Of a stretch of DNA of 64,000 bases, positions 19,444 through 54,856 are shown one piece after another. The DNA is from Candidatus Fermentibacter sp. (GTDB lineage Bacteria > Fermentibacterota > Fermentibacteria > Fermentibacterales > Fermentibacteraceae). Each line of letters begins with the position of its first letter. The stretch's first letter is position 1. The notes beneath the pieces are model-generated. The model had not been told where the DNA came from, did no database searches, and worked only from the letters and a program-made list of their open reading frames with translations. A program made the translations under genes and the position numbers. The DNA is taken from positions 17,078 to 81,077 of the forward strand of contig JAUCPW010000018.1 in the NCBI GenBank assembly GCA_030373045.1. Reading direction: 5' to 3'.

Positions 19444-20418
19444 ATGGGTCGTCGAGTGAGACTCGATCAGACGGATTCTCTGCACCACGTGATGACGAGG
19501 ACCGTCGAGAGAAGGCCGCTGTTCGAGGATGACACCGACAGAGTCGCATTTCTCGATGTGCTTTCCAGGGTCTGCTCGCTGACCGGCACGAGGATTCTCG
19601 CCTGGGCGCTGATGGGAACCCACGTCCATCTCCTCGTGAGATGCGCCGAGTATCCCCTTTCCGGCTTCATGCAGCAGATTCTGTCGAGCTATGCCCGCTG
19701 CTTCAACCGGAGGCACGACAGGACCGGCCATCTCTTCGAAGACAGGTTCAGATCGATCCTGGTCAACGACGAGAGCTACCTTCTGTCCGTCATCCGGTAC
19801 ATCCATCTCAATCCCGTGGCGTCGGGGATGTTGGATTCCGTGGAAACTCTCGGGAAGTATCCCTGGACCGGCCATAGAGCCGTTGTCACAGGTGTCGCGA
19901 TCGACGGTCAGGACATCGACGGGGTGCTGTCGCTCTTCGGAGGGAGCAGGAGTGAAGCCCTGTCGTCATATCTCAACATGATGGAATCGGATTCTCCGGC
20001 ATGGGAGTACGGAGGAGAGGGTTTCATCCTCGGAAGGAAGGGTGTTGTCAGCAGCAGGCTGTCAGATCTGATCTCGATGGACTCCCCTCGCCGGACAGGA
20101 CTGCTGGGGGATGTGGAGTCCAGTGCAGCTGTCGCAAGATCTGTGGTCGGATCGGTTTCGATCGATGTGAGGAACAGGGCGGCCGAACACGAAAAGGTCG
20201 AGTCAATCCTGAGCGAGACTCTCTCGAGGTTCAATCTGAGTCCCGGGGTTCTCACAGGGAATTCTCGAAGGGGTTCAGTCACACAAGCTCGAGCATATGC
20301 GGCCAGACGCCTCGTGACAGAGGCGGGGCTGAGTTTCACTGAAACGGGCAGGTTGCTCGGGATGACCAGACAGGGCGTGAACTATCTATTGAACTGCAAG
20401 ACGATAATAGTCCGATAA
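19444..20418 (+). CDS. tnpA: IS200-like HuH (Y1) tyrosine transposase with C-terminal DnaA-C-type helix-turn-helix
   Basis: AGGAGG RBS; …RPLFEDDTDRVAFLDVL…LAWALMGTHVHLLV (HuH), RYIHLNPV (catalytic Tyr region) as in IS200/REP-associated Y1 transposases; C-terminal RAYAARRLVTEAGLSFTETGRLLGMTRQGVNY resembles DnaA C-terminal HTH. Confidence 0.7.
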   Translation: MGRRVRLDQTDSLHHVMTRTVERRPLFEDDTDRVAFLDVLSRVCSLTGTRILAWALMGTHVHLLVRCAEYPLSGFMQQILSSYARCFNRRHDRTGHLFEDRFRSILVNDESYLLSVIRYIHLNPVASGMLDSVETLGKYPWTGHRAVVTGVAIDGQDIDGVLSLFGGSRSEALSSYLNMMESDSPAWEYGGEGFILGRKGVVSSRLSDLISMDSPRRTGLLGDVESSAAVARSVVGSVSIDVRNRAAEHEKVESILSETLSRFNLSPGVLTGNSRRGSVTQARAYAARRLVTEAGLSFTETGRLLGMTRQGVNYLLNCKTIIVR

Positions 20419-20471: not shown

Positions 20472-22802
20472 ATGATGGTGATGACGGTGGCGGTTGCTCT
20501 GATCGCGGGCCTTCCGGGGCCAGCCGATGTTTTCGACTGGCCGGCCTTCCCCGGGCCCGGCATGGTCGAGACGGTCAACCCGGCCTGCCTGGCGTGGCAG
20601 CCCGACATGCTCCTCTCGGTCGGGCTCCCGTCCAGCGACAGCTCACTGCACCGGCCCGACCGCGTCTTCCTCGGCGCGCCCGGTGTCGGTTTCTCGGGCT
20701 GGTGGGAGAACGGGGGCGATCTCAGGAGGTTCACCGCCGGATCCGCCTTCGGGATCGGCGGGAGCCTGGCCGCCGGAGCCGCCTATTCGTGGATGGATCC
20801 GGTCTCGGGCGGGCCCTGGGACGGGGTCGGATCCTGGGACATCGGTCTCTCGTTCCGGCCCTCGGCCATGATCTCCGCCGGCCTGGTCCGCCACGGGGGA
20901 TACGACGGCGGTTCCGTGGAGGGAGACGCATCCCTGAGAGCCGGCCTGGCCGTCAGACCCCTGGGGGACCGGCTGACCTTCACCGGCAACGCTGTGACCG
21001 GCGAAGACTTCGACGATTTCGAGTTCGACGGAGGCCTGGAATACAGGCCAGTTCCGGGGGCCGCGATCAGGCTCGGCCTCGCCGAGGACCGTGTGTCCGC
21101 CGGGATCTCCACCGACTTCGGGCATCTCGGCGCCGCCTTCGCGGGCCTCGCCCAGGATGACGAGTACTCAGGCGGCCGGGCGGAGATCCGGCTGACGTCC
21201 TCCCCCCGTGCGGGCATCCTCCCGCGCCGGCACACATACGTGAGGATAGAGACGGGAACGACCCGAGAGGAGCCCTCCCGCGCCTTCCTGGGCCCGGTCG
21301 GGCGCAGCTTCTCCGAGGAGATCCTGCTGGTGGAGCGGGCGGTCGAGGATCCGTCGGTCGACGGGTTCATAGTCGAGACCGACGGGGGAACCGGCACCGC
21401 CGCGCAGGCAGAGGAGCTGAGGACCCAGCTCGCCCGGGCCAGGGGAATGGGCAAGCAGGTCGTGGTCTACTCCGGTTCCCCCGGCAACATCGAATGCTAC
21501 CTGGGCAGCTCGGGCACCGAGTTCTGGATGCACCCCGCCGGCGAGACGTTCCTCACCGGTTTCGCCGCCCACGGCATCTTCATCCGCGACCTGCTCGACA
21601 ACATCGGGCTCTACCCGGACCTCGTGCGGATAGGCGAGTACAAGAGCGCCGCCGACATGCTGACCCGGTCCGACATGTCCGAGGCCCAGAGGATCGCCGA
21701 GACAGCCCTGCTAGAATCCTTCCACACCGAGCTCTTCCGGGCCCTGACGGACGGCCGCGGCCTCGAGCCGCCGCAGATGGTCTCCCTGCTCGAGGAGGGG
21801 ATGCTGAACCCTCGCGAGGCCGTCAGCGCCGGGCTCGTCGACAGCACCGCCTACCCCGACGAGATCCAGGAGAGGCTTTCCGAGACCAACGGTCACGGAA
21901 TAGCGGTGCAGAGCCTGGACGAGTACGGGAACTCGATCCCGGTCGGCGACGCCTGGGGTCCCGAACCCCGAATAGCCGTCATAGTGGCCACCGGCTTCAT
22001 CACCCGCGGCTCGAGCGGCTACTCGTTCCCCCTGGGCGAGACCATGGGCAGCGAGACGATCTGCGGGCTCGTCAGGAGCGCGGCAGCGCGGCCCGGCGTG
22101 AAGGCCGTCGTCATCCGCATAGACTCGGGCGGCGGAGACAGCTTCGCCTCCGAGGAGATGCTGCACTGCATCGAGGACGTTTCCGACGAGATGCCCGTAG
22201 TCGTCTCGATGGGAGGCGTCGCAGCCTCCGGGGGATACTACATGGCCTGCGGCGCCGACAGCATCTTCGCCGACGACTTCACGATCACCGGCTCCATAGG
22301 TGTCATCGGGGGGAAGATCGCGGCGGGAGACCTGCTCGACAGGATCGGCGTCGACGTGGAGACGGTCTCGCCCTATCCGATGGCCGACATGTTCAGCATC
22401 TTCTCGAGATTCTCCGACGCCCAGAGGGAGAACGTCGAGGAGTCGGTCGGCCACTGCTACGACCTTTTCACTCAAAGGGTGGCCGAAGGCCGCGGCATGA
22501 CCCCGGCTCAGGTCGATTCGATCGGCCGGGGACGCGTCTGGTCGGGATCCGACGCCGTGGAGATCGGCCTCGTCGACAGGATCGGCGGTCTGGCCGACGC
22601 GGTGCGCTGCGCGGCGGGCATGGCCGGGCTGGACGATGACTGGGTGCCCGCCGTGGAGGTGTATCCCAGGCCGGGCCTGTTCGAGGGATTCAGCATGAGC
22701 CCGTTCGGCGGCGCCTCGTTGCTCGATCTCGAGAGCCTGCTGGAGCAGGTGTCGGCCTTCGACAGGCCGCTCTACCTGATGCAGCCGATCGTGGTCGAGT
22801 GA
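20472..22802 (+). CDS. sppA: signal peptide peptidase SppA (protease IV, two S49 domains) with an N-terminal Gly-rich extension
   Basis: two ClpP/S49-like repeats: …GKQVVVYSGSPGNIECYLGSS… and …VVVSMGGVAASGGYYMACGADSIFADDFTITGSIGVIGGK…; ~230 aa extension precedes first S49 domain. Confidence 0.7.
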   Translation: MMVMTVAVALIAGLPGPADVFDWPAFPGPGMVETVNPACLAWQPDMLLSVGLPSSDSSLHRPDRVFLGAPGVGFSGWWENGGDLRRFTAGSAFGIGGSLAAGAAYSWMDPVSGGPWDGVGSWDIGLSFRPSAMISAGLVRHGGYDGGSVEGDASLRAGLAVRPLGDRLTFTGNAVTGEDFDDFEFDGGLEYRPVPGAAIRLGLAEDRVSAGISTDFGHLGAAFAGLAQDDEYSGGRAEIRLTSSPRAGILPRRHTYVRIETGTTREEPSRAFLGPVGRSFSEEILLVERAVEDPSVDGFIVETDGGTGTAAQAEELRTQLARARGMGKQVVVYSGSPGNIECYLGSSGTEFWMHPAGETFLTGFAAHGIFIRDLLDNIGLYPDLVRIGEYKSAADMLTRSDMSEAQRIAETALLESFHTELFRALTDGRGLEPPQMVSLLEEGMLNPREAVSAGLVDSTAYPDEIQERLSETNGHGIAVQSLDEYGNSIPVGDAWGPEPRIAVIVATGFITRGSSGYSFPLGETMGSETICGLVRSAAARPGVKAVVIRIDSGGGDSFASEEMLHCIEDVSDEMPVVVSMGGVAASGGYYMACGADSIFADDFTITGSIGVIGGKIAAGDLLDRIGVDVETVSPYPMADMFSIFSRFSDAQRENVEESVGHCYDLFTQRVAEGRGMTPAQVDSIGRGRVWSGSDAVEIGLVDRIGGLADAVRCAAGMAGLDDDWVPAVEVYPRPGLFEGFSMSPFGGASLLDLESLLEQVSAFDRPLYLMQPIVVE

Positions 22803-23716
22803 GCGGAGGGCTCCTGCCGGAGGCGGCCGATCCCGCCTCCTACAGGGATGCGAAGAGCAGTTCGGACTTCGTGCCTGCGGCGGCCGAGATCTGCCGCAGG
22901 CACGGGATCCCGCAGTCGGGGCTCGCGAGGGCGGATTCGGGGACGCATCTGGTCTTCATGCTTCCCGGGATGGCGATCAAGGTGTTCGCGCCGCTCTGGC
23001 CGGAGGACTTCGAGGCGGAACGGGCCGCGCTTCGAGCCATGGGCGGCGGACCCTTCCCCGCGATAGCCCACGAGGGCACCCTGGAGAGCTGGCCCTATCT
23101 CGTCATCACCAGGATCCCCGGCAGACCGGCGAGGGATCTCTGGCCGCTCCTGCCGCGCAGCGGAAAGGAATCCCTGCTGCACGAACTCGGCGGCCTGCTG
23201 CGCGGGCTGCACCGGACCCCGGTTCCATCGGCCCTGCAGACCGACTGGCCCGCATTCGCATCCGGTCTGGAAGCCACGCTGGAATCCCGGAACGACCCGC
23301 CGTCCGCCGGGTGGAGGGACTGGCTGCTGGACCGCGCGCACCTCGATCCGGGCCCCTTCGAGCCGGTGCTCCTCCACGCTGACGTCACCTGGGACCATGT
23401 GTTCGCCATGCGCGACGGCGACGGCATCCGCCTCTCGGGGCTCATCGACTTCGGCGACGCCATGTCCGGGCATCCCCTGTACGAGTTCGGAGCCCCTCTC
23501 CTCTACATGTGCTTCGGGGAACCGGACCTCACATGGAGCCTGCTGTCCGGCTACGGGCTCCCGAGGAGCCCCGGGACGGCTCGAAGCGTGCTCGCTTGCA
23601 GCCTGCTCCACAGGTTCGGAAGGCTCGGGCGCTGGCTCGAGAAGGTGCCGGTCGCCGACGGCAGGGCCTTCGAGGAGGCCCTTTTCGGCTTCGACCCGGG
23701 GTGTTCCGGCTCCTAG
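22799..23716 (+). CDS. phosphotransferase-family protein (APH/choline-kinase-like fold)
   Basis: GTG start overlapping sppA stop; …VLLHADVTWDHVF…GLIDFGDAMSG resembles the HxDxxxxN / DFG motifs of APH-type kinases, with a nonstandard catalytic-loop sequence. Confidence 0.5.
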   Translation: MSGGLLPEAADPASYRDAKSSSDFVPAAAEICRRHGIPQSGLARADSGTHLVFMLPGMAIKVFAPLWPEDFEAERAALRAMGGGPFPAIAHEGTLESWPYLVITRIPGRPARDLWPLLPRSGKESLLHELGGLLRGLHRTPVPSALQTDWPAFASGLEATLESRNDPPSAGWRDWLLDRAHLDPGPFEPVLLHADVTWDHVFAMRDGDGIRLSGLIDFGDAMSGHPLYEFGAPLLYMCFGEPDLTWSLLSGYGLPRSPGTARSVLACSLLHRFGRLGRWLEKVPVADGRAFEEALFGFDPGCSGS

Positions 23717-24759
23717 AACTCCCCGGAGCCCAGGGACATCCCCATGTGGAAGCCCTCGGGGGAAAGGGCCGTCAGGTCCAGCTTGACCGCGATCCCGTCC
23801 ACCGCGAGGGAGAGCCCGACCCCCGCGTCGGGATGCCAGCGGTCCCATCTTATTCCGCCGAAACTGTCGGACGCCTGTCCGGCATCCCCGAACAGGGCCG
23901 CCCCGACAGTCGCCAGCGGCTGTCCGGTCGCGGGGTCGGCCGCGAGATCGAAGAGCGGCCTGCGGAGCTCGATGTTGGCCACCGTCATCCACGATCCGGA
24001 GAATCTGTCGTCTGCGTATCCCCGCAGGAGCTGGTCCGGACCCAGGAACGGAAGGTAGGGGAGGGGCGTGGCATCTACGCCGTGATGGTGCGCCAGGTCG
24101 TACCTTAGAGCGAGCAGCGCATCTCCGCCCAGCGGCAGGTAGGCCACCCTCTCCAGGTCTCCGGTCCAGTACTCCGCTGCCTCTCCGCGCTGCCAGTCGA
24201 AGCGGACCCGGATGTCCTCACAGACCGGGATCGGGCACGAGCTCGACTGGATCTCCACTGACGGCCCCGCTGTCCACTCGGAGGATGCCAGGAGGCCCGG
24301 CAGCCCGCTCCAGAGTCCGCCCTCCTCGAAACCGAAGGCGGAGGAATGGCGCACCTCGGCGCCGAGCCTGACCTGCACCGGGCCGAAGGTCTGCGCGCGT
24401 CCGATGGCGACGGCGTCCCTCTCCCTGTCGTACTCGAGGCTGGAGTCCGGATCGCCCGAGTTGCCCCAGCCGTAGAAGTCCCTCCCGAGCCTCTGGTCGT
24501 GGCTGCCCGTGAGGTACCACGAGCTCCCTGCCGCCGGGAGCCTCACGCCGAAGGATTCGTACTGGCCGCCGCGGGTGGTGCCGTAGGCCGTCAGGGAGAA
24601 CGAGGCGGGAGACGTCCCGCCCGTGACCGCCTCGAACCTGCCTCCGTAGAGCAGGCCCGACCCGGAGGAGTAGCTGACCAGCGGAAGGGCTGCCCAGCCG
24701 GCCTCCGCGCCCGCCGACAGCATTCCTGCCATCAGTGGGAAGAAGTGATGGAACTTCAT
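23713..24759 (-). CDS. outer-membrane beta-barrel protein (Omp85/D15 surface-antigen-like barrel suspected)
   Basis: signal peptide MKFHHFFPLMAGMLSAGAEA; alternating Gly/aromatic pattern; C-terminus …GMSLGSGEF ends in Phe, typical of OMP barrels. Confidence 0.45.
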   Translation of the reverse strand: MKFHHFFPLMAGMLSAGAEAGWAALPLVSYSSGSGLLYGGRFEAVTGGTSPASFSLTAYGTTRGGQYESFGVRLPAAGSSWYLTGSHDQRLGRDFYGWGNSGDPDSSLEYDRERDAVAIGRAQTFGPVQVRLGAEVRHSSAFGFEEGGLWSGLPGLLASSEWTAGPSVEIQSSSCPIPVCEDIRVRFDWQRGEAAEYWTGDLERVAYLPLGGDALLALRYDLAHHHGVDATPLPYLPFLGPDQLLRGYADDRFSGSWMTVANIELRRPLFDLAADPATGQPLATVGAALFGDAGQASDSFGGIRWDRWHPDAGVGLSLAVDGIAVKLDLTALSPEGFHMGMSLGSGEF

Positions 24760-24874
24760 CTGCCCCCTCCAGTATCAGGCCATATATTCGAAGATCGGGC
24801 CGTCCCGCCGCATGGCAGGCATCCGGTCCGGGGGTTTATACTCATACCGGAACCCCTCAAGGAGGCTTGGCTTG

Positions 24875-25579
24875 ATGAGGCCTCTGGCCGTCGTCCCGAC
24901 CTACAACGAGATATCCAACATCAGGCGGCTCATACCCGCCATTCTCGACCTGCCCGGCTCTCCCTGCATCCTCGTCGTCGACGACAGCAGCCCGGACGGC
25001 ACGGGCGACGCAGTCCGCGAATTCGAGCACACAGGCAGGGTCCACCTCCTGACCAGACCCCAGAAGAAGGGTCTCGGGCAGGCCTATGTCGCGGGCTTCC
25101 GCTGGGCGCTCGAGCACGGGTACGATCCCATCATCCAGATGGACGCCGACTTCTCCCACGACCCCGGCAAGGTGCCCGAACTGACGGCGGCCCTGGCCGA
25201 CCACGACTTCGCCCTGGGCTCGCGGTACTGCAGCGGCGTGAACGTGGTCAACTGGCCGCTGTCCAGGCTCCTGCTGTCCTATTTCGCCAACGTCTACACC
25301 CGTCTGATAACCGGCCTGCCCGTCACCGACGCCACCGGCGGATTCAAGGCGTTCAGGAGGGAAGCCCTCGAGAAGCTCGACCTCGACGGCATCCGCTCGG
25401 ACGGCTACTCGTTCCAGATCGAGGTGACTTACAAGCTGGCGAAGGCGGGATGCAGCGTGGTCGAAGTACCCATCATCTTCGTCGACCGCCACGCGGGCAC
25501 CTCCAAGATGACCAGGAGCATCGTCTGGGAGGCGGTCTGGATGGTCTGGCGCCTGAAGTTCCCCTGGCTCTCCCGATGA
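24875..25579 (+). CDS. polyprenol-phosphate glycosyltransferase, GT2 (Ppm1/DPM1/GtrB-like)
   Basis: ATG 24875 with GGAGG 9 nt upstream (track's 24812 start is an extension); MRPLAVVPTYNE…ILVVDDSSPDGTGD…QMDADFSHDP… GT2 DxD pattern of polyprenyl-P-sugar synthases. Confidence 0.7.
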   Translation: MRPLAVVPTYNEISNIRRLIPAILDLPGSPCILVVDDSSPDGTGDAVREFEHTGRVHLLTRPQKKGLGQAYVAGFRWALEHGYDPIIQMDADFSHDPGKVPELTAALADHDFALGSRYCSGVNVVNWPLSRLLLSYFANVYTRLITGLPVTDATGGFKAFRREALEKLDLDGIRSDGYSFQIEVTYKLAKAGCSVVEVPIIFVDRHAGTSKMTRSIVWEAVWMVWRLKFPWLSR

Positions 25580-27813
25580 CCCTGCCGGCCCTGGCCCTCG
25601 TCATCCTCGCTGCATCGCCGGAGGTCGGGGAGTGGAACCTCCTGACGTCCATGACCCATGTGAGATCGGCGCAGGCCACCCCCGACGGCCTCTGGTGCGC
25701 CACGTCGGGCGGGGTCTTCTTCTATTCCTTCTCGGGCGGATTCCAGACCGAGTACCGCTACCCCGGCGACCTTCCCCACTTCGCCGTGGACGACGTCCTC
25801 CTCGACACCCAGGGCAGGCTCTGGTGCGCCACGGAGGACGGCCTGGCCCTGCTCGAGAACGGCGAGTGGACCGTGTACACCTCCTTCGAGGGGATCCCGG
25901 GCTCCGGCGCGGTGACGGATGTGGAGCAGGCCGGGTCCTGGATCTGGGCCGGGTCGGACGGCGGCCTGGCGCGATGGGACGGCACCGGGTTCCTGCATCT
26001 CGACGAGGATCTCACCCAGGGCGGCTTCCCCGCGGATGAAGTCGACGCCCTCGCACAGAGGGACGATTCGCTCTGGATAGCCACCGGGCTCGGAGTCTTC
26101 TCGCTCGATCTGGGCGCGAGCCCGTTCTCGAAGGATTCGTGGCATCTCTGGCCGGGGACGCAGGGCCTGGGGATCGAGGGATTCCTGGCCGCCCCCGACA
26201 GCCTGTACGGATTCGGCACGGGCGGCGTCTTCAGGAGGGATGCCGCCGCATGGACGGTGCTCCTCGACTATTCGGGCTCTGCCGACAGCACGGTGATGGA
26301 TCTCGTCCAGACCCCGGACGGGCTCCTGGCGGCATGCTACGGAGTGCGCCGCAGGATCTCCGGAACCGTCTGGGAGCCCTGGGGAGAGGGCTTCCCCCCC
26401 GGCACCCAGGCCACGTTCCTCGCCGTGGGCGGGGGCTCGGTCTGGTGCGGCGAGGGCTCCCTCCACTGGACCAATACCGACTACGGCAGGGGGCTCGCAC
26501 GGCTCGACTCGGGGATATGGACCACGCTGCAGATCCCGGGGCTGCCCGCGAGGAGCTGCTATCAGCCGGCCTTCGTCGACGGCGTGTTCTACTCCGGCAG
26601 CCACAACGCCGGGCTCATGGCCCGCTACGGCGACACCTGGACGACCTTCGACCAGGAGGACGGCCTCCCCACCACGCTGCGCGTCTACCCGGCCGTCGAG
26701 GCCCCGGGCGGGACGGTATGGACCGCCAGCTACCACTACGGCCTGACCTGGGTCGACGACGGAGGCACGCCAGGAGGTTCCGACGACAGCCTGGTCACAT
26801 TCGTGAGCGACAGCACCGGGATGCCGCCCTCGGTCACCCAGATCGAGTGCCCTCTCCTCAACAACCAGGTAGTCTGCCTGGTGTCGGATGGCGGGACGCT
26901 CTGGATCGGCCACGAGCCCTTCTGGTCCGCTCCCGGCGAACCGAGCGGGATCTCGGTCTGCGTGGGCGACCCCGCCTCGGGCGACCTCCAGTGGGCCACC
27001 TTCGGGGAAGGAGAGGGGCTAGCCTCGGGCAACATCCGCTCCCTTTACAGGCATGGAGCGGGCGGCCTGTGGATCGCATTCTCGGGTGACGCCGGGTGCC
27101 AGTACCTCGACTTCGCCGGCACGCCCCTCGTGCACTCCGACGACACCTGGCTCCCCGCACCGGGCCAGGCGTACGGAGCATCCCAAGGGCTCCCCTCGAA
27201 CCAGGTCTTCTCGTTCTGCGACGACGCCCAGGGGGGCGTCCTCGTCGGGACGGGCGCCGGGCTCGCCCGGTGGGATCCGTCGACCGGCTTCTCCATCGTC
27301 GAAGGCGTTTCCGGGACCATCAAGGCCCTCGCCCTGGACGGCGACGGCACGGCATGGTGCCTGGGCACCTCCGGCATCTCGGCGGTCGATGGAGCCTCGG
27401 TGGCGTACTACTCCGAGTCGAACTCGCCGTTCATCCCCTCCGGCAGGGTCGAGAACGAGTTCGCCCTCTGGGATGAGGAGTCGGGAAGGATGATGCTCTC
27501 CTCGGCCATCGGATTCTGGGTCCTCGATACGGGAGCCGGCTCCGGGGCCTCGAGCGGGCCCTCGTTCTACCCCCAGCCCTTCCTGCCGGGCGACGGGAGC
27601 GTCCTGCGCCTCGCCGGGGCGGGCGAGGGGCCCGTGGAGGTGGGGCTCTACTCGGTGGACGGAGCGTTCATCACGTCGGTGGAGGCCGCCTCCCCGGACG
27701 AATGGTACTGGGACGGGGCTTCCGGGGGTGAAACCGTGGCAGGCGGCATCTATCTGGCATTGATCGTGTCGGAATCGGGAACTGCAGTCTCAAAGCTGGC
27801 GGTAGTCAGATGA
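25576..27813 (+). CDS. secreted beta-propeller repeat protein with C-terminal FlgD-Ig / T9SS-type sorting domain
   Basis: ATG 25576 overlaps upstream stop (ATGA); signal peptide MTLPALALVILAAS; repeated …GLW/LWCAT…G…W… propeller-like repeats; C-terminal FYPQPFLPGDGSVLRL…VGLYSVDGAFI…WYWDGASGGETVAGGIYLALI… CTD. Confidence 0.6.
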   Translation: MTLPALALVILAASPEVGEWNLLTSMTHVRSAQATPDGLWCATSGGVFFYSFSGGFQTEYRYPGDLPHFAVDDVLLDTQGRLWCATEDGLALLENGEWTVYTSFEGIPGSGAVTDVEQAGSWIWAGSDGGLARWDGTGFLHLDEDLTQGGFPADEVDALAQRDDSLWIATGLGVFSLDLGASPFSKDSWHLWPGTQGLGIEGFLAAPDSLYGFGTGGVFRRDAAAWTVLLDYSGSADSTVMDLVQTPDGLLAACYGVRRRISGTVWEPWGEGFPPGTQATFLAVGGGSVWCGEGSLHWTNTDYGRGLARLDSGIWTTLQIPGLPARSCYQPAFVDGVFYSGSHNAGLMARYGDTWTTFDQEDGLPTTLRVYPAVEAPGGTVWTASYHYGLTWVDDGGTPGGSDDSLVTFVSDSTGMPPSVTQIECPLLNNQVVCLVSDGGTLWIGHEPFWSAPGEPSGISVCVGDPASGDLQWATFGEGEGLASGNIRSLYRHGAGGLWIAFSGDAGCQYLDFAGTPLVHSDDTWLPAPGQAYGASQGLPSNQVFSFCDDAQGGVLVGTGAGLARWDPSTGFSIVEGVSGTIKALALDGDGTAWCLGTSGISAVDGASVAYYSESNSPFIPSGRVENEFALWDEESGRMMLSSAIGFWVLDTGAGSGASSGPSFYPQPFLPGDGSVLRLAGAGEGPVEVGLYSVDGAFITSVEAASPDEWYWDGASGGETVAGGIYLALIVSESGTAVSKLAVVR

Positions 27814-28790
27814 TCAGGGCAAGACAGCTCGAGTTCGGTGACAGGGAGAGGTGGGCGGAATTCGTCAGGCTCTCCTCCAACGGCACCCTCTTCCACCTCC
27901 CGGAATTCTTCGACTACCACCCGCCCGGGCGGTTCGACAACCATCACGTGGTCCTCGAGGACGAGGGCGACGGCTCGTTCGTCGCGATCGCCACCGGGGC
28001 CCTGTCCACCGTGAACGGCGAGCGCTGGTTCAGATCGTATCCCGGGGCGTCGTGGGGCGGCCTGGTACTCAACGACGGCGCCGGGCTGGAGACGGTCGAG
28101 GAGTGCGTCGACGCACTGATCGCCCATGCGAGGGGCCTGGGCGCGGCCGGGATGGAGATGACCTCCCCGCCCCTCGTCTATCACAGGCGCCCGTCGAACT
28201 ACCTCGACTTCGCCCTGGTCAGGCGCGGCTTCACGTACCGGAAGAGGGAGCTCACCGCGGTCATCGACCTCGGCAGGATGGGCGACGAGGTGGAGCTGGC
28301 GTTCCGCGACGCCGCCAGGAGGGGAGCCTCCCGGGCCAGGAGGATGGGCATCGAGGTCTTCGAGGAGCCTGACTTCTCCGCCTTCTACCCGGTGCTCGAG
28401 ACGAACCTCCAGGAGCGCCACGGGGTGAGGCCGACGCACACCATCGAGGAGCTCGAGAGGCTGAGAGACCTCCTGGGCCCCGGCATGATCACGCAGTTCG
28501 TGGCGAGGGGCGAGCAGGGCGTCCTGGCCGGGATGGTGATGTTCAGGTGCAACCCCAGGGTCACCCTGGCCTTCTACATCTCGCACGACGCGCGATTCCA
28601 GGCCCTGCGCCCGGTCAACCTGGTGTACCAGGAGGTGATCAGGTGGGCGAGGGACTCGGGCTACAGGCACCTCGACCTCGGCACATTCACCCTCGACATG
28701 CAGGTGAACCGCGGGCTCTGCCGCTTCAAGGAGTCGTTCAGCGCCAGGGGCCATTTCAGGGACACCTTCACGGGCAGGATAGACGGATGA
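27810..28790 (+). CDS. FemAB-family (GNAT-fold) aminoacyl/acyl transferase
   Basis: ATGA-coupled; 326 aa with two-lobed GNAT-like pattern (…LFHLPEFFDYH…; …VLAGMVMFRCNPRVTLAFYISHD…) as in FemAB/Acetyltransf_6-type proteins. Confidence 0.5.
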   Translation: MIRARQLEFGDRERWAEFVRLSSNGTLFHLPEFFDYHPPGRFDNHHVVLEDEGDGSFVAIATGALSTVNGERWFRSYPGASWGGLVLNDGAGLETVEECVDALIAHARGLGAAGMEMTSPPLVYHRRPSNYLDFALVRRGFTYRKRELTAVIDLGRMGDEVELAFRDAARRGASRARRMGIEVFEEPDFSAFYPVLETNLQERHGVRPTHTIEELERLRDLLGPGMITQFVARGEQGVLAGMVMFRCNPRVTLAFYISHDARFQALRPVNLVYQEVIRWARDSGYRHLDLGTFTLDMQVNRGLCRFKESFSARGHFRDTFTGRIDG

Positions 28791-28800
28791 CCGGAGGGGC

Positions 28801-30060
28801 ATGATCCCTCCCGCCTCCCGGTCGCTGCTGATATGGATAGCGCTCACGGGGCTCGTGTTCGGGGGCAGGCTCTGCACTACCGACGTCCTCGCCCAGCTCC
28901 AGGTCGCGCAGTCGTTCACGGGGGCGAGGCCCTTCCTCACCGCCTCCGACGGCTGGACGGTCGAAGGCGTCGACGGGCGGAGCTACGTCCCCCACGGGAT
29001 CGGATACTCCGTCCTCCTGCTGCCTGCCGCCCTGGCGGGCCTCGCCGCCGGGGAGGCAGTGGCCAGGATCTCGACGGCTCTGACGTGTGCAGCCCTTTCC
29101 GCCTGTCTGTTCGCGGTATGGAGGTCGCTGTGCGTGTCCGTGAACGGAGCCCCGCCTCCGGCATGGAAGGCCCTCGCCGTGATGACCGGCGGCATGGCGC
29201 TCGTATATGCCCGGCTTCCCTTCGACGTCACCGCCGCAGCGCTCCTGTGCACGGCGTCGCTCTGTGCGGCTTCATCCGGAAGGGACCGTGCCGCCGGCTT
29301 CCTGATCGGGGCCGCGCTGCTGGTGCGGCTCGACAGCGCGGTGTTCCTCCCTTCGCTCGTGTACGGGTGGAGGCGGGGCGCGAGGCTCGTCCCGGGCGTC
29401 GCATGCGCCCTCGCGCTGATCGCGGCGGCGAACCTGTACCGGTTCGGATCGATTCTTTCGGACGGGCACTCCCAGGACCCGGCCATGGCCCTGGAACCCG
29501 GGCTGGCCGGGCTCGCGGGCCTTCTCGCCAGCCCGGGCAAGGGGCTCGTCTGGTTCGCTCCGGTCGTGCTCCCCGCGGCATCGCGCCACAGGGGGTGGAG
29601 GCTGGCCGCCCCGCTCGCATTCAGCCTCGTCCTCCATTCCATGCTGCACGACTGGACGGGCGGTACGGGATGGGGCCCGAGGTTCCTGTTCCCGGCCCTG
29701 CCGGCGTTCCTCGTCCCGCTTGCGGCTCCGCGCCGGGAGGGGGGCCTCTTCGGGCTGACGGCGGCCTGGGGCGTCATCCTGACAGTCGCCGCCGTCTGGT
29801 CCAATCCATCGGTGATCGAGAGATCCCTCGGAGCCGACGCCTTCGAGGACCCGACGAGGCAGGCCGTGATCTGGCAGCCGTCGAGATCGCCCCTGCTCCA
29901 CTCGGTCTCGTCGATCGGCTCGGGCACCCCGGACCTGTTCTGCCTCGGGGTGCTGGCAGAGTCGCGCACCGCCGGCACGGCCGCCTGCATCATGCAGGGC
30001 GCATGGGTCCTCGGCGCCCTGGCCCTGGCCGGGGCGCGCCGCAGGGGAGGCCCTGGATGA
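28801..30060 (+). CDS. polytopic membrane protein (candidate Wzy-type polymerase or GT-C glycosyltransferase)
   Basis: 419 aa, ~10 hydrophobic segments, no soluble-domain motifs recognised. Confidence 0.4.
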   Translation: MIPPASRSLLIWIALTGLVFGGRLCTTDVLAQLQVAQSFTGARPFLTASDGWTVEGVDGRSYVPHGIGYSVLLLPAALAGLAAGEAVARISTALTCAALSACLFAVWRSLCVSVNGAPPPAWKALAVMTGGMALVYARLPFDVTAAALLCTASLCAASSGRDRAAGFLIGAALLVRLDSAVFLPSLVYGWRRGARLVPGVACALALIAAANLYRFGSILSDGHSQDPAMALEPGLAGLAGLLASPGKGLVWFAPVVLPAASRHRGWRLAAPLAFSLVLHSMLHDWTGGTGWGPRFLFPALPAFLVPLAAPRREGGLFGLTAAWGVILTVAAVWSNPSVIERSLGADAFEDPTRQAVIWQPSRSPLLHSVSSIGSGTPDLFCLGVLAESRTAGTAACIMQGAWVLGALALAGARRRGGPG

Positions 30061-31136
30061 GAATCCTCCACGTCTCTCCCCAGAACTACACCGGGGTGCT
30101 CGCGCTGTATCCGAAGGGGCATCGCGCCCTCGGCCACGAGAGCCGCCTCGTCACGTTCTTCAGGGCGGGCAACAGGTACGAGGAGGACATCTGCCTCGAG
30201 CTGCCCTTCGTGGGCCCCATGGAGTGGCTCTGGAAGGTGAAGAGGCTGGTGGGCGCCGGGAGCATGAGGGTGCCCTTCACCGGAACCAGTGACAGGATCA
30301 CCTGGACGCCGGGCCTGCTCGAAAGGCTCCTGCTCTCGCTCCGGAACGCCGTCTGGACCCCCCGGATAGACAGGGCGCGGAGGCGCTGGTCCCTCGACGA
30401 CTTCGACATCTACCACTACGAGGGAGGCATGAGCTTCTACAGGGACGGCAGGGACGTCACGCGCCTGAAGGCCGCCGGGAAGAGGATCGTGTCGAACTAC
30501 CACGGTCTCGATCTGAGGATGAGGGGGGCGATCAGGCCGGTCTGGGACGCCACCGACGTCCACGTCACGTGCGAGTTCGACCTCTTCAGGAGATATGACG
30601 AGCTGGAGTACATGTTCCTGCCGTTCGACCCCTCGCTCATGCCCCCGCGGGGGCCCGACGGAGGGACCGTGAGGATCTGCCATGCCCCCCGCATACGCGA
30701 GGTGAAGGGGACCGCGACGGTCATCGAGGCGGTCGAGCGTCTCTCCCGCCGGATGCCCGTGGAGCTGGTGCTGATCGAGGGCCTGCCGCACGCCAGGGCG
30801 CTCGCCCTCAAGGCTTCCTGCCACATATCGATAGACCAGATCGCGAGCGGAGAGATGGGTTACGGGGTGAACTCGCTGGAGAGCCTCTCGATGGGGATCC
30901 CCACGGTCACCAACCTGTCGGAGGAGTACAGGGACTTCATACCCGACCACCCGTTCGTCCTGGCGACCCCCGATACCCTCGGAGCGGTCCTCGGGGAGCT
31001 CGTCCTCGATCCCGGCATGAGGTCGAGATATGGTGCCGCCGGCCCGCCCTGGATCGATGCGCGGCACCACTGGCTGAAGGTGGCCCGCGACATTCACGCC
31101 CTCTACCGCAGGATGGGATGGGAGAGCGATGGCTGA
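30057..31136 (+). CDS. glycosyltransferase family 1 (GT-B)
   Basis: ATG 30057 overlapping upstream stop (ATGA); C-terminal …SLSMGIPTVTNLSEE… GT-B sugar-donor binding half. Confidence 0.6.
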   Translation: MRILHVSPQNYTGVLALYPKGHRALGHESRLVTFFRAGNRYEEDICLELPFVGPMEWLWKVKRLVGAGSMRVPFTGTSDRITWTPGLLERLLLSLRNAVWTPRIDRARRRWSLDDFDIYHYEGGMSFYRDGRDVTRLKAAGKRIVSNYHGLDLRMRGAIRPVWDATDVHVTCEFDLFRRYDELEYMFLPFDPSLMPPRGPDGGTVRICHAPRIREVKGTATVIEAVERLSRRMPVELVLIEGLPHARALALKASCHISIDQIASGEMGYGVNSLESLSMGIPTVTNLSEEYRDFIPDHPFVLATPDTLGAVLGELVLDPGMRSRYGAAGPPWIDARHHWLKVARDIHALYRRMGWESDG

Positions 31137-32514
31137 CGGGCTCCGCAGGGAGACGCTGCTGTACGGGCTCTCGACGATCGTGAGCGGCCTCGTGATGCTC
31201 GCTTTCCTGCCCTTCATGTCGGAATGGCTCGATCCGGCGGAGGCGGGCGAGTCGGGCGTCCTCAGGATCACCGCCGAGGTCTTCGCCGGCATCGCGGTGC
31301 TCGGGCTGCCCGTGGGCATCGTCAGGCTCTGGAGCCGGGATGGTGTTTCGAAGCGGGCGGTGGTGATCCGCGCCGCCTCAGGCACCGTCGCGGCGGCGGC
31401 GATCCTGGGTGCGGCCGCATTCCTGCTGTCGCCGTGGCTCAGGTCGGTGCTCAGCATATCGACGCCTTCGGGCCTCCTCCACGCCTGCCTGCTGGGTACC
31501 GGGGCCGCCCTGGTGCAGGTCGCACTCACCTTCCACAGGGCGGACGGCAGGGCGGGGAGCTATTTCTGGGTTCAGGCCGCGCGCGGGCTCCTCTCGCTGG
31601 CCCTGCTGCCCCTCCTCCTTCTCGCGGGGGCCGGAGGGGTCAACTCGTTCCTGGCCGCGAGGTGGGTACCGGCGATGCTGGCGGCCGCGACCGCCATCCT
31701 GGTCGCCCTGCATTTCGCAGGCCCCTCTCCGGGGAGCGCGAAGGGCCTCCTCCGCTACAGCCTGCCCCTGGTGCCCGCGGGGCTGGCGATGCTCGTACTC
31801 TCGTCCGCGGACATGATGATGCTCAGGAGCATGGCCCCCGATCTCCTCGAGAGCGGCTACTACGAATGGTCGTCTTCGGCCTGCATGGCCCTGACGCCGC
31901 TGACCATAGGATTCGGGATGGCCTGGCACAGGAGGGTCTTCGGAGCCGCCGGCCAGCCGGGAGGGCTCGCCAGGCTGGGCAGGCAGGCGCTCGCCTTCAT
32001 CGTCGTGCTCGAGGCCGCCGCCCTGCTGCTGGCCCTGTCCTCGCGCGAGCTCGTGGAGCTGGTCGGAGGCCCGGACTACTCTGGTGCGGCCCGGGTGCTC
32101 CCCATTCTCGCCGGATCGGCCGCCCTGTACGGGGTGTTCATCGTGGCGCAGACCGGCCCTCTGCTCTCGGGCAGGACCTGGCAGGTCTCGATGGCCACGG
32201 TCATAGGCGCATTCGGCAACATCGTCTTCAACTACAGGCTGATACCGCTCTACGGCGCTTCGGGCGCCGCACTGGCCACCCTGGGCACCAATCTCTTCAT
32301 GGCCGCGAGCCTCTTCTGGACTGGCCGCGCATCGTTCCCCGCGAACGCTCCGCTGATCGCGCTCGTCATGGCCGTCCCGGCCGCGATGGGCCCCGTCTCG
32401 ACGCTCTCCCTCCCGCTCAGGGCGACGATCGCAGTCGCGTGGACAGCCGGCTCGGCGCTCCTGTGCCGCGCCCTGCTCCGGGAGGACGCCCGGGAGGAGG
32501 GCGGGGATGCCTGA
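31129..32514 (+). CDS. wzx: Wzx-like oligosaccharide flippase (MOP superfamily)
   Basis: 461 aa, ~12-14 TM, polysaccharide-biosynthesis-protein pattern. Confidence 0.55.
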   Translation: MADGLRRETLLYGLSTIVSGLVMLAFLPFMSEWLDPAEAGESGVLRITAEVFAGIAVLGLPVGIVRLWSRDGVSKRAVVIRAASGTVAAAAILGAAAFLLSPWLRSVLSISTPSGLLHACLLGTGAALVQVALTFHRADGRAGSYFWVQAARGLLSLALLPLLLLAGAGGVNSFLAARWVPAMLAAATAILVALHFAGPSPGSAKGLLRYSLPLVPAGLAMLVLSSADMMMLRSMAPDLLESGYYEWSSSACMALTPLTIGFGMAWHRRVFGAAGQPGGLARLGRQALAFIVVLEAAALLLALSSRELVELVGGPDYSGAARVLPILAGSAALYGVFIVAQTGPLLSGRTWQVSMATVIGAFGNIVFNYRLIPLYGASGAALATLGTNLFMAASLFWTGRASFPANAPLIALVMAVPAAMGPVSTLSLPLRATIAVAWTAGSALLCRALLREDAREEGGDA

Positions 32515-33454
32515 TCAGACGCCAGCAGTATCGGTGCAGGTCCCGGTCAGGAATCCGGGGGCCGCCTTCGCGGCCTTTCTCGGCTCGCTGTCCGTGCAGG
32601 GAGCGGGCGGGACGGAATACGAACTGATCGTGGTCGACGACGGCAGCGACGAACCCGTGGGCGAACGCTTCGACCTGCGCCCGGAGGGCTGCACGAGGAT
32701 GGAACTCGTCAGGCTCCAGGGGCGCGGCAACAGGCCCCGGGCGAGGAACGCGGCCCTCGAGGCCTCGAAGGCGCCGGTGTCGTTCTTCACCGACGCTGAT
32801 CTGAGGCTGGCTCCGGGCGTCCTGGCGGGACACGCCGCCTTCCACGGATCCCGCGGAGGCAGGGCCGTGCTTCGCGGCCTGCGGATCAACGCCTGGTCGG
32901 TCTCCGCCACCCGCTGGCAGAAGTGGTTCGACACGAGGGCGGGCGGAGCCGGAGGCACTCTCTCCGCCATGCCCTGGAGGCACTTCGTAACCGGGAACGC
33001 ATCGGTGCCGAGGGATCTGGCCGTGGAGGCGGGGCTCTTCGACGAGATGATAACGGGCTACGGGGGCGAGGACACCGAGTTCGCATACCGGCTCCACCTC
33101 GCCGGGGCCTCGTTCTTCCGCGACCCGTCCCTGAGGGCGGACCATCTCGACGACGTGTCGGTGCGCAGGCATTCCGCGAAGATGGAGGAGTACGGTTCTA
33201 CAGGCCTGGCGTACACCCTCTCGAAGCACCCCGGGCTCGTCGGGCTGCTGGGAACCGCCTGGGTCCCGGAGCACGCGCGGGGTCCGGCCGGACGCCTGAG
33301 GGCCGCTCTGGTGAAGGCCGCCGTCTCCGACCCCGTCTACCGTTCGATCCTGCGCTTGATGGAGCTCGTGGGCCGTCCGGGCCTCCTGTTCACATATCTA
33401 TCGGTCGGAGCATGTCTTCGCGGCTACACCCGGAGGAGCCATGACGGAACCTGA
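32507..33454 (+). CDS. glycosyltransferase family 2
   Basis: …YELIVVDDGSDEP… and …GYGGEDTEFAYRL… GT2 motifs. Confidence 0.6.
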   Translation: MPDQTPAVSVQVPVRNPGAAFAAFLGSLSVQGAGGTEYELIVVDDGSDEPVGERFDLRPEGCTRMELVRLQGRGNRPRARNAALEASKAPVSFFTDADLRLAPGVLAGHAAFHGSRGGRAVLRGLRINAWSVSATRWQKWFDTRAGGAGGTLSAMPWRHFVTGNASVPRDLAVEAGLFDEMITGYGGEDTEFAYRLHLAGASFFRDPSLRADHLDDVSVRRHSAKMEEYGSTGLAYTLSKHPGLVGLLGTAWVPEHARGPAGRLRAALVKAAVSDPVYRSILRLMELVGRPGLLFTYLSVGACLRGYTRRSHDGT

Positions 33455-34379
33455 CGCCATCGGAGCCCTGTCCGCAGCCTTCCCCGGCCGCATCCGCACG
33501 GCCCACCTGGCCGACCTGACGACATGGCGCATCGGAGGTGAAGCTTCGGTCATGGAGGCCGACTCGCCGGGGATGCTCGAGGAGGTCACCGGAACTGCGA
33601 GGGATCTGGGCGTCGGCATCTTCGTCCTGGGCCGGGGCTCCAACATCCTGGCCTCCGACTCCGGTTGCGACGGGCTCGTCATCAGGCTCTCCGGTGCATT
33701 CCGCCAGGTCCTGTGGCGGAGGGAAGGCGACCTGTGGAGGGTCGAGGCGGGCGCATCCGCCATGCTCCCGGGTCTTGCCGGCGCTTCGTGCATGAAGGGC
33801 GCGGCAGGGCTGGAGTTCGCCGCGGGCATACCGGGCACCGTCGGCGGGGCTGTCTTCATGAACGCCGGGGCCTACGGGGCCAGCATCTCCGAACTGGTGT
33901 CCTCCGTCCGGTTCCTGTCGGAGAAGGGATGGGCGACGGCGGGCAGGGAGGGATGCGGGTTCGGGTACAGGACGAGCGCCTTCCAGTCGTCCTCCGGAAT
34001 CGTGGCTTCGGTCGTCCTCGAACTCCGCGCCGGGGACGCGGCCGCCCTCATGGAGTCCGCATCGGGCATCCTCCGGAAGCGGCGGGAGTCGTTCCCCCTC
34101 GAGCTGCCCAATGCAGGCAGCGTGTTCAGGAGGACGGAGGGGGCTCCTCCCCCCGGCAGGCTCATCGAGGAGGCCGGGCTCAAGGGCAGGAGGGCGGGGG
34201 GAGCCATGATATCCGACCTGCACGCCAACTTCATCGTGAACACGGGAGGTGCCTCATCGGGCGACGTCACCGACCTCGTGGGGGATGCCAGGAGGGCGGT
34301 CTACGAGACGTCGGGGGTCTCCCTGGTCGAGGAGATCAGGTATCTCGGCCGCTTCGGCGGACAGACCGAGGGGCGTTAG
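33441..34379 (+). CDS. murB: UDP-N-acetylenolpyruvoylglucosamine reductase (MurB) homologue
   Basis: FAD-binding …GIFVLGRGSNILASD…, …AGIPGTVGGAVFMNAGAYG…, C-terminal …GGAMISDLHANFIVNTGGASSGDV… MurB pattern. Confidence 0.7.
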   Translation: MTEPDAIGALSAAFPGRIRTAHLADLTTWRIGGEASVMEADSPGMLEEVTGTARDLGVGIFVLGRGSNILASDSGCDGLVIRLSGAFRQVLWRREGDLWRVEAGASAMLPGLAGASCMKGAAGLEFAAGIPGTVGGAVFMNAGAYGASISELVSSVRFLSEKGWATAGREGCGFGYRTSAFQSSSGIVASVVLELRAGDAAALMESASGILRKRRESFPLELPNAGSVFRRTEGAPPPGRLIEEAGLKGRRAGGAMISDLHANFIVNTGGASSGDVTDLVGDARRAVYETSGVSLVEEIRYLGRFGGQTEGR

Positions 34380-34381
34380 CC

Positions 34382-35332
34382 ATGGCAAGGACACTGGCAG
34401 GTGGAATGGTGCTCGATGACGGCCCCATCCTCGTCACGGGCGCCGCGGGTTTCGTCGGGCGCCACCTCATGTATCAGCTCGAGATGGGCGCGGGCGACTT
34501 CGCCACCGACCTCGGCGACTCCTTCGAGGCGCCGCCGGGAGTCGCCCGGCTCTCGTGGAGGCTGCCCGGAGGTCCTGTTCCGGATGCGCTCGGCGGAGGC
34601 GCGAGGTACATCGTCCACCTGGCCGGAGTCTCCTCCGTCGCCCATTCGGGGATGGACGCAGCGGGCATCTACACGGTCAACACCGCCGGGACGGCCGCCA
34701 TGCTCGAATGGGCCGTCTCGTCGTCCCCCGGCGCGAGGATCCTCTTCGTGAGCTCGTCGGAAGTCTACGGCTCGTCGTCCGGCCTGCTGACCGAGTCCTC
34801 TCCCGTCGCGCCCAGGAACGCATACGGCGGCAGCAAGGCCGCCGCCGAGGAAGCGGTCAGGCAGTTCGCCAGGTCCTCCGGCATGGACATCGTGATCGCC
34901 CGACCCTTCCCCCACTTCGGTCCGTGGCAGGATCCCCGGTTCGCCCTCCCCTCCTTCTGCCGGAGGTTACTCGAGGCCGCCAGGAGCGGGCCGCCTTCGA
35001 TCTCCGTCGGCAACCTCGCGCCCGTGAGGGATTACACCTATATAGGCGACGTCGTGGAGGCCTACTCGATCCTCCTCGCAAGAGGGAGGGCCGGGACGGT
35101 CTACAACATCGCGAGCGGGGAGGGCCGCACGATGGCCTCGATCCTGGAAATCCTGATCGGGATGTCGGGATCGGCCGTCGAAGCGGTACCCGATCCCTCC
35201 CTGCTGAGGGAATCCGACGTTTCCGTCCAGGTCGGCAGCGCCTCCCGCATGGAGGCACTCGGCTGGAGGAGGAGATACACTCTCGAGGAGGGGCTGCGCC
35301 TCCTCCTCGGCTGGTGGGGGGAGAGGACATGA
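34382..35332 (+). CDS. NAD-dependent epimerase/dehydratase (GDP-4-keto-6-deoxymannose reductase Rmd-like)
   Basis: ATG 34382 (track's 33665 start is an extension through murB); ILVTGAAGFVGRHL…SSSEVYG…AYGGSKAAAE. Confidence 0.55.
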   Translation: MARTLAGGMVLDDGPILVTGAAGFVGRHLMYQLEMGAGDFATDLGDSFEAPPGVARLSWRLPGGPVPDALGGGARYIVHLAGVSSVAHSGMDAAGIYTVNTAGTAAMLEWAVSSSPGARILFVSSSEVYGSSSGLLTESSPVAPRNAYGGSKAAAEEAVRQFARSSGMDIVIARPFPHFGPWQDPRFALPSFCRRLLEAARSGPPSISVGNLAPVRDYTYIGDVVEAYSILLARGRAGTVYNIASGEGRTMASILEILIGMSGSAVEAVPDPSLLRESDVSVQVGSASRMEALGWRRRYTLEEGLRLLLGWWGERT

Positions 35333-37491: not shown

Positions 37492-37499
37492 GAGGCGCG

Positions 37500-42598: not shown

Positions 42599-42606
42599 GA
42601 CCCGAG

Positions 42607-54810: not shown

Positions 54811-54856
54811 CGGTCCGGGGGCGCGCGCCCCGGACAGGCCGTCCGGAGTTGGACAA

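Follow-up and report, generated by a model that had tools for sequence, protein, structure and literature searches.

To our knowledge, Porphyromonas, Tannerella and Prevotella are the only genera in which the anchoring of type IX secretion system (T9SS) cargo has been elucidated, and there the genes for PorZ, for PorU and for making the linking sugar lie scattered. PorZ, itself part of the T9SS, has two seven-bladed propellers and a C-terminal domain (CTD) that remains uncleaved (PMC5121618, PMC8545088). The sole characterised PorZ binds the anchor glycan, anionic lipopolysaccharide (A-LPS), and its interaction with PorU is A-LPS dependent (PMC8545088). On the biosynthetic side, VimA decides whether serine or glycine is placed on the linking sugar, and its match to the TIGR03019 model has been noted (PMC7468200); a more recent proposal has VimF transferring the linking sugar in its aminoacylated form (PMC13086638). 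Here, we describe a 64,000-nt stretch of Candidatus Fermentibacter sp. contig JAUCPW010000018.1 (GCA_030373045.1), hereafter the window, in which a gene for a PorZ-like propeller protein (25576–27813) adjoins a gene for a Fem-type transferase (27810–28790) within a glycan operon. We put at roughly one half the probability that this interval holds two parts of a T9SS attachment module, encoded inside the very operon responsible for its glycan substrate.

The interval belongs to a run of 16 genes on the forward (+) strand, from 24875 to 43908 (~19 kb), in which adjoining genes overlap or are separated by at most 10 nt. In order, these encode a family 2 glycosyltransferase (GT2), PorZ-like protein 1, the Fem-type transferase, a membrane protein, a GT4-like glycosyltransferase, a flippase, a second GT2, MurB, a short-chain dehydrogenase/reductase (SDR) and PorZ-like protein 2, followed by RmlA-like, RmlB-like, UDP-xylose synthase (UXS)-like, Wza, Wzz and Wzx proteins. 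The G+C content of the window is 63 to 71%, and real reading frames were picked out by their third-position G+C. An earlier note on this DNA had described the propeller gene as translationally coupled to a GT2 gene upstream and to a FemAB-like gene downstream, with glycan-assembly genes following in the same operon. ATGA overlaps are present at both junctions, the GT2 stop and propeller-gene start at 25576–25579 and the propeller-gene stop and FemAB-like start at 27810–27813, and the glycan-assembly genes do continue on the same strand at the close spacing given above. Because 4-nt overlaps of the same kind recur at 30057, 35329 and 38246, the ATGA coupling is ordinary operon packing and carries no special signal. 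A promoter and terminator scan of the operon returned fewer sites than shuffled controls, and a tRNA scan found no tRNA gene in the window.

PorZ-like protein 1 (25576–27813, + strand; 745 aa) begins with a short signal peptide, continues with a pair of seven-bladed Reg_prop propellers (approximately residues 17–652) and ends in a β-sandwich. Its Reg_prop repeats match PF07494 with 58.5 bits. An AlphaFold2 (AF2) model built on 36 orthologues, with a mean predicted local distance difference test (pLDDT) score of 88.7 and a predicted template modelling (pTM) score of 0.82, places ~57 strands before residue 652, in ~14 four-stranded blades, and the sandwich at residues 663–743. Searched against the PDB with Foldseek, the model retrieved PorZ (5M11) as its top match, aligned over the full length with an E-value of 5.4e-25 and a template modelling (TM) score of 0.61 in both directions. 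The next-best matches were sensor domains of Bacteroides hybrid two-component systems (HTCSs), with a similar E-value; because these reach TM scores of just 0.31 to 0.36, the overall arrangement is matched by PorZ alone. Consistent with the structural search, the family profile of the protein aligns with that of PorZ 5m11 at an E-value of 1.5e-13, collinearly across the last 280 residues.

A T9SS-type CTD at the end of this protein (residues ~660–745; 27553–27810, + strand), where the earlier note had seen a T9SS/FlgD-Ig-type domain, is supported by the modelled sandwich, by Foldseek and by two alignments. In the first, the NCBIfam PorZ model (NF052228) runs through the C terminus, pairing residues 581–745 with model positions 589–757 (E 1.6e-8); the score is 33.5 bits against an equivalog cut-off of 260, and the aligned part is the C-terminal ~150 to 170 residues. 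In the second, the C terminus aligns with the CTDs of the paralogous PorZ-like protein, of both PorU-like proteins and of a C25 peptidase encoded in the window, all of which have in common the motifs YPxPF, WDG, G-Y and a terminal V-R. The CTD hidden Markov models (HMMs) TIGR04183, PF18962 and PF13860 themselves gave no match to PorZ-like protein 1 at E ≤ 0.1.

The operon encodes a second protein of this type. PorZ-like protein 2 (35329–37491, + strand; 720 aa) resembles protein 1 over its full length as a paralogue (26% identity, E 1e-50) and is the stronger PorZ match, scoring 79.7 bits on NF052228 (cut-off 260), again over the C-terminal ~150 to 170 residues, and aligning with PorZ 5m11 at an E-value of 4e-26 in a profile comparison. 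It also passes the T9SS type A CTD model TIGR04183 (24.3 bits, cut-off 23). Its orthologues are 714 to 723 aa long and occupy the same operon position in all Fermentibacterota relatives examined. Like PorZ (PG1604, 5M11), which belongs to the attachment complex PorU-PorV-PorZ-PorQ, the proteins described here combine two propellers with a seven-stranded CTD sandwich, and their lengths of 745 and 720 aa are close to the 758 aa of the 5M11 chain. Unlike in PorZ, their propeller repeats are nearer in sequence to the Reg_prop sensors of hybrid two-component systems. They also differ from Porphyromonas gingivalis PorZ in occurring as two paralogues, both within a glycan operon and in a host from the Fermentibacterota, with no PorQ or PorV gene seen nearby.

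The earlier note took the propeller protein to be T9SS cargo, its CTD cleaved and its gene co-expressed with the machinery for its own anchoring glycan. A signal peptide, a CTD-like domain and a place in a glycan operon would all suit such a protein. We nevertheless find this reading quite improbable, given the fixed length of the family, its strict synteny, the presence of a paralogue in the same operon and a PorZ fold, whose CTD stays uncleaved in the characterised protein (PMC8545088, PMC5121618). In database searches, family members of 739 to 777 aa showed 39 to 92% identity to protein 1, followed by a sharp fall to Reg_prop sensor kinases at ~25%. All members are annotated "hypothetical protein", and those that are named come from Candidatus Fermentibacteria, Aegiribacteria or Fermentibacteraceae, save one bin labelled Gemmatimonadaceae. 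A far more cargo-like protein is encoded elsewhere in the window, a gingipain-like C25 peptidase (8126–10333, + strand) comprising a C25 propeptide, the C25 peptidase, an Ig-like domain and a T9SS type A CTD (Peptidase_C25, 180 bits; Propeptide_C25; Peptidase_C25_C; TIGR04183, 29 bits against a cut-off of 23). Its domain makeup suggests that it is probably true T9SS cargo in a genome from outside the Bacteroidota. PorZ-like protein 1 itself is probably a component of the T9SS machinery, because its length is fixed, it is syntenic in every Fermentibacterota locus examined and it has the architecture and fold of PorZ.

The second gene of the interval (27810–28790, + strand) encodes a 326-aa protein that the earlier note had assigned to the FemAB/Acetyltransf_6 family. 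This assignment holds. The protein passes Acetyltransf_6 (PF13480) with 43.5 bits (cut-off 22), and Pfam FemAB (PF02388) covers its C-terminal 80 residues with 22.3 bits, just under the gathering cut-off of 24; many of its orthologues carry a precomputed PF02388 match. In profile searches, the family matched the aminoacyl-tRNA-dependent peptide synthases 9wqw and 9wqy (Sbb17, Sba18) at an E-value of 7e-12 and FemX at 4e-4. The AF2 model (pLDDT 93.2) retrieved Sba18 (E 1.6e-17) and Weissella FemX (TM score 0.76 to 0.77), with FemA and Sbb17 also among the top Foldseek matches. The Sba18 and Sbb17 structures are complexes with the amino-sugar compound streptothrisamine. Judged by its model, the predicted product belongs with the Fem-type tandem-GNAT enzymes rather than with generic acetyltransferases, and its closest structural matches suggest that it is probably aminoacyl-tRNA dependent.

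The tandem-GNAT fold is common to this protein and to FemX, FemA, Sba18 and Sbb17, and, like FemX, the protein is without the coiled-coil arm of FemA. It differs from all four in its setting, a Gram-negative bacterium of the Fibrobacterota-Chlorobiota-Bacteroidota (FCB) group, to which the phylum Fermentibacterota belongs, and an operon of glycan and T9SS-component genes, as well as in scoring just below the PF02388 cut-off. Its best NCBIfam match is TIGR03019, the FemAB-family model from exopolysaccharide loci with the XrtA/PEP-CTERM exosortase, which aligns over nearly the full length (residues 14–310 to model positions 2–274). The genes of that model, too, sit in loci where a sorting transpeptidase and a polysaccharide go together, as has been noted (PMC7468200). 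At 38.5 bits, the match is far short of the model's cut-off (260), and no exosortase or PEP-CTERM protein was seen in the window.

TIGR03019 also connects the Fem-type protein with VimA. For this comparison, the P. gingivalis bcp-recA-vimA-vimE-vimF-aroG locus was recovered from a metagenome contig by way of a published vimF primer; its vimA product is 97% identical to a P. gingivalis database protein, and the vimE product scores above the cut-off of the NCBIfam equivalog for VimE. BLASTP found no significant similarity between VimA and the Fem-type protein of the window. Family-to-family alignment with hhalign covered 257 collinear columns with 19% identity, at a probability of 83.6% and an E-value of 8e-6; PF13480 matches the C-terminal half of each protein, and TIGR03019 matches each of them weakly (38.5 bits for the Fem-type protein, 29.6 for VimA). 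They are similar in size (326 and 322 aa), and each has a GT4 gene close by, so that the pair of Fem-type and GT4-like genes parallels vimA and vimF. Unlike the Fem-type family, the VimA family matches no solved structure by sequence. The GT4-like partner was rejected as a VimF orthologue at the sequence level, there being no detectable relation, and tblastn with P. gingivalis VimA, VimE and VimF found nothing in the window at an E-value of 1e-3. By sequence, the Fem-type protein and VimA thus appear to be far-removed relatives within one superfamily, each encoded in an analogous pair of genes, a relationship short of demonstrated orthology. The likeness to VimA that the earlier note had drawn on comes down to remote homology. 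The note's broader parallel with the Wbp/Vim anchor-glycan pathway is supported as far as the PorU-like, PorZ-like and remotely VimA-related proteins are concerned and lacks support for VimE, VimF and the Wbp enzymes, of which tblastn and family scans found no homologue in the window.

The earlier note had asked whether this genome has a PorU sortase; the window contains two PorU-like genes in tandem (51028–58603), seven kb beyond the operon, which bears out a connection with type IX secretion. Paralogue a (51028–54810, + strand; 1260 aa) scores 358 bits on NF033707, covering model positions 7–1076 of 1095, and 195 bits on Peptidase_C25; paralogue b (54794–58603, + strand; 1269 aa) scores 364.4 bits over positions 7–1080. 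The two are 41% identical and both carry a CTD. Their catalytic motifs are intact (GHG 805 and ASCD 838 in a; GHG 806 and ATCD 839 in b), and paralogue a matches PorU 6ZA2 with an E-value of 2.4e-26. Full-length alignment to NF033707, the C25 His and Cys motifs and the CTD are thus all kept relative to PorU. Unlike PorU, the proteins occur here as tandem paralogues, both under the curated cut-off, with no adjoining PorV; the gene that follows the pair (58641–59813) was rejected as PorV, its product being soluble, helical and TPR-like. Family scans of the window found none of the translocon and motor genes SprA/Sov, PorV and PorK/L/M/N, and no PorQ or PorP-family gene. Two PorU-like and two PorZ-like paralogues may represent two parallel attachment pairs.

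Gene order was compared with that of four other Fermentibacterota loci, including that of a Sabulitectum relative, at 41 to 68% propeller identity. The same order is present in all four, beginning with an Omp85-like gene on the opposite strand and continuing through GT2, PorZ-like 1, Fem, membrane protein, GT4-like, flippase, GT2, MurB, SDR, PorZ-like 2 and RmlA. In one locus followed further (L011), RmlB, UXS, Wza and Wzz are also kept and the last Wzx/MATE flippase is not. The junction of the propeller and Fem genes is kept as a 1- or 4-nt overlap in the relatives. A plain operon for exopolysaccharide or O antigen, functionally unconnected with secretion and having a generic polymer-decorating acyltransferase and propellers that are unrelated neighbours, would typically contain the Wza, Wzz, Wzx, RmlA and RmlB genes seen here, and it would be in keeping with PorZ and PorU HMM scores below the curated cut-offs. 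Such loci are usually variable, whereas 15 genes are kept in order here between relatives at ~41% propeller identity, and the Fem and PorZ folds are specific rather than generic; we judge this explanation very improbable.

Beyond the phylum, it is the Fem-type gene and not the propeller gene that persists. The Fem-type protein is the better conserved of the two, at 57 to 97% identity within the Fermentibacterota and 45 to 49% in Edwardsbacteria and Latescibacteria. The adjacency of propeller and FemAB genes, a point that the earlier note had raised for relatives, extends to every Fermentibacterota locus examined and stops there, no propeller gene lying beside the Fem orthologue in the Edwardsbacteria and Latescibacteria loci. 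In these loci, a GT4-like orthologue (36 to 44% identity) follows the Fem orthologue directly or after one gene, so that the Fem/GT4-like pairing is conserved across three phyla (L003, 10001–12052; L004, 10001–12052; L009, 5329–9663; L010, 7380–10942). A homologous flippase adjoins the pair in L010. Separately, a 1032-aa Edwardsbacteria protein without a Pfam domain (L003, 1321–4419) ends in a T9SS-type CTD that resembles the CTDs found in PorZ-like protein 2 and in the PorU-like pair, so CTD-bearing proteins occur in Edwardsbacteria too.

Taken together, these comparisons are consistent with the following scheme for an attachment module that is encoded with its glycan. The glycosyltransferases, flippases and NDP-sugar enzymes of the operon would assemble a lipid-linked surface glycan. 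The GT4-like partner would install an amino sugar, which we infer to be the acceptor onto which the Fem-type enzyme puts an amino acid, and the glycan would then be exported. At the cell surface, the two PorZ-like proteins would capture the glycan and offer it to both PorU-like sortases; in protein 1, the propellers would bind the glycan and the CTD would serve T9SS export and surface retention. The sortases, in turn, would cleave the CTD of the cargo and link the new C terminus to the amino acid that had been added, through its free amine.

Several observations weigh against this scheme. Scores for both PorZ-like proteins (33.5 and 79.7 bits) fall far below the 260 bits set for the PorZ equivalog, and both PorU-like proteins, at 358 and 364.4 bits, lie under the NF033707 cut-off of 420. 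The likeness to VimA appears at the profile level only, with 19% identity. Linkage to PorU is not conserved, no PorU gene being found in the 10 kb that follow the operon in L011. Family scans of the window found no VimE-like, CE4 or DUF7033 deacetylase, no WbpA/B-type gene, no aminotransferase and no initiating phosphoglycosyltransferase; because deacetylase, Wbp enzyme and aminotransferase are all missing there, the window has no visible source of the acceptor amine. Two further features, the fixed place of murB in the operon, where the gene product passes its equivalog cut-off, and the position of the Edwardsbacteria-type Fem/GT4-like pair next to an AmiC-type amidase (Amidase_3) and a glutamate racemase (Asp_Glu_race), in loci from which the propeller is absent, point towards the cell wall.

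Along these lines, the Fem-type, GT4-like, flippase and MurB genes could form a cell-wall or envelope pathway, such as a peptidoglycan branch or an essential glycolipid, that is unrelated to T9SS anchoring; the propellers would then be glycan-binding proteins that the T9SS secretes to the surface, where they act on the polymer or sense it, or would simply be co-located. The high conservation of the Fem orthologues, within the phylum and between phyla, suits a pathway of this kind, as do the missing source of an acceptor amine and the presence of FemX among the best structural matches, canonical Fem enzymes acting on peptidoglycan precursors. Peptidoglycan branching, however, needs neither a GT-B glycosyltransferase nor a Wzx-type flippase, both of which accompany the Fem gene (as in L010), and the closest PDB sequence matches are the streptothrisamine-complex enzymes rather than FemX. 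Moreover, two PorZ-fold genes are fixed in the operon across the phylum, and the PorZ that has been characterised binds the anchor glycan (PMC8545088). We consider a separate envelope pathway the main rival, unlikely but well worth keeping in mind.

In the remotest of the readings, Fermentibacterota T9SS sortases might attach cargo to a Gram-positive-style nucleophile, an amino acid or peptide added by the Fem-type enzyme to a MurNAc-type (N-acetylmuramic acid) or peptidoglycan-precursor-like lipid-linked glycan. An acceptor of the MurNAc type would explain why murB lies inside the operon. If this long shot were true, the two PorZ/PorU pairs would serve two acceptors or two classes of cargo, and sortase-lipid II chemistry and type IX secretion would have a convergent or ancestral link.

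Returning to a T9SS attachment module encoded with its glycan, the host lies outside the Bacteroidota, as the earlier note had supposed, the named relatives being Fermentibacterota. A literature search found no paper joining type IX secretion with Fermentibacter*, and this is probably the first T9SS anchor-glycan locus seen outside the Bacteroidota. What is new here is the presence of duplicate PorZ-type genes, fixed in a glycan operon with a Fem-type transferase, together with duplicate PorU; the underlying T9SS attachment is known. A whole phylum keeps two PorZ-type genes in one operon with the Fem-type transferase and glycan-assembly genes. If the module works as proposed, this arrangement would lend independent genomic support to PorZ as a glycan shuttle, extend covalent glycan anchoring beyond the Bacteroidota and offer a compact gene set for reconstituting the anchor pathway. 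Two Fermentibacterota families labelled "hypothetical protein" are now identified, and attention is drawn to a Fem and GT4-like pair that is conserved across several FCB candidate phyla.

The remaining genes of the operon, all on the + strand, are as follows. The first GT2 (24875–25579; PF00535, 98.7 bits) is of the polyprenyl-phosphate sugar synthase type that the earlier note had named; its best NCBIfam matches are such synthases (AglJ, PpgS and Dol-P-hexose transferase), all under cut-off. Its sequence context suggests that translation probably starts at the ATG at 24875 and not at 24812, because AAGGAGG lies 9 nt upstream and the resulting 234-aa product compares with 235 to 248 aa in relatives. 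After the Fem gene comes a polytopic membrane protein (28801–30060; 419 aa, at least seven hydrophobic segments), which occupies this position in all Fermentibacterota loci examined. Pfam gave no match for it in any of five orthologues, and it may be an enzyme of the GT-C, polymerase or ligase type. A 423-aa gene product in L009 was rejected as its homologue, since this is a TPR protein whose apparently invariant columns arose by chance. The GT4-like (GT-B) glycosyltransferase (30057–31136), whose gene stays paired with the Fem-type gene from one phylum to another, matches GT4 structures at the profile level (5i45, E 3.7e-8; PglA 8dvz, E 6e-5). The Wzx/MurJ-superfamily flippase (31129–32514; 461 aa) has at least nine transmembrane segments and is HfsF-like over its full length (E 3e-7), with a weak Polysacc_synt match among its relatives. 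The second GT2 (32507–33454) scores 39.7 bits on PF00535 and 93 bits, under cut-off, on an EpsD-like model.

MurB, the UDP-N-acetylenolpyruvoylglucosamine reductase (33441–34379), passes both NF010480 (269.8 bits, cut-off 259) and TIGR00179 (191.9 bits, cut-off 144.5), and murB holds the same mid-operon position in all Fermentibacterota loci examined. The SDR (34376–35332) is a sugar epimerase/dehydratase with matches to NDP-sugar dehydratase and epimerase families, all under cut-off; relatives have an Epimerase gene for 309 to 316 aa at this position. Downstream of PorZ-like protein 2 are the RmlA-like (37500–38249), RmlB-like (38246–39280) and UXS/4,6-dehydratase-like SDR (39277–40212) genes, followed by those for Wza-like (40203–41372; Poly_export), Wzz/GNVR-like (41288–42598; GNVR) and Wzx/MATE-type flippase (42607–43908; Polysacc_synt_3) proteins. 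Calling the longest open reading frame (ORF) misleads at three places in this high-GC window (24812 versus 24875, 34555 versus 35329 and 38461 versus 39277). A 978-aa ORF (34555–37491) was rejected as a single gene, as it corresponds to the SDR gene, read in another frame, followed by the 720-aa PorZ paralogue. Likewise, a 583-aa ORF (38461–40212) splits into the RmlB-like and UXS-like genes. The RmlA-like protein scores weakly as a MurU (76 bits, cut-off 250), and an APH-family kinase gene (22799–23716) adjoins sppA, a position that it does not keep in all relatives; together, the two faintly recall the AmgK/MurU pair of MurNAc recycling.

The operon's divergent neighbour (23713–24759, − strand) encodes an Omp85-family outer-membrane barrel without POTRA domains (NF047779, 58.4 bits, E 8.5e-16), with a signal peptide and a C-terminal Phe. 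A gene for 344 to 355 aa has the same divergent position in L001, L002, L005 and L006. The protein was rejected as PorV or PorQ, as it matches Omp85_fam alone and a PDB search was empty; its role may be in export or docking. Further upstream, between a DUF1015 gene cluster and sppA, lies an ORF for an IS200/IS605-type Y1 transposase (19444–20418; PF01797, E 6e-14), which looks like a recent insertion, there being no gene at that spot in the closest long relative, L001. A 690-aa protein encoded at 5955–8027 (− strand) combines a patatin-like phospholipase N terminus with a BamA/POTRA-like region.

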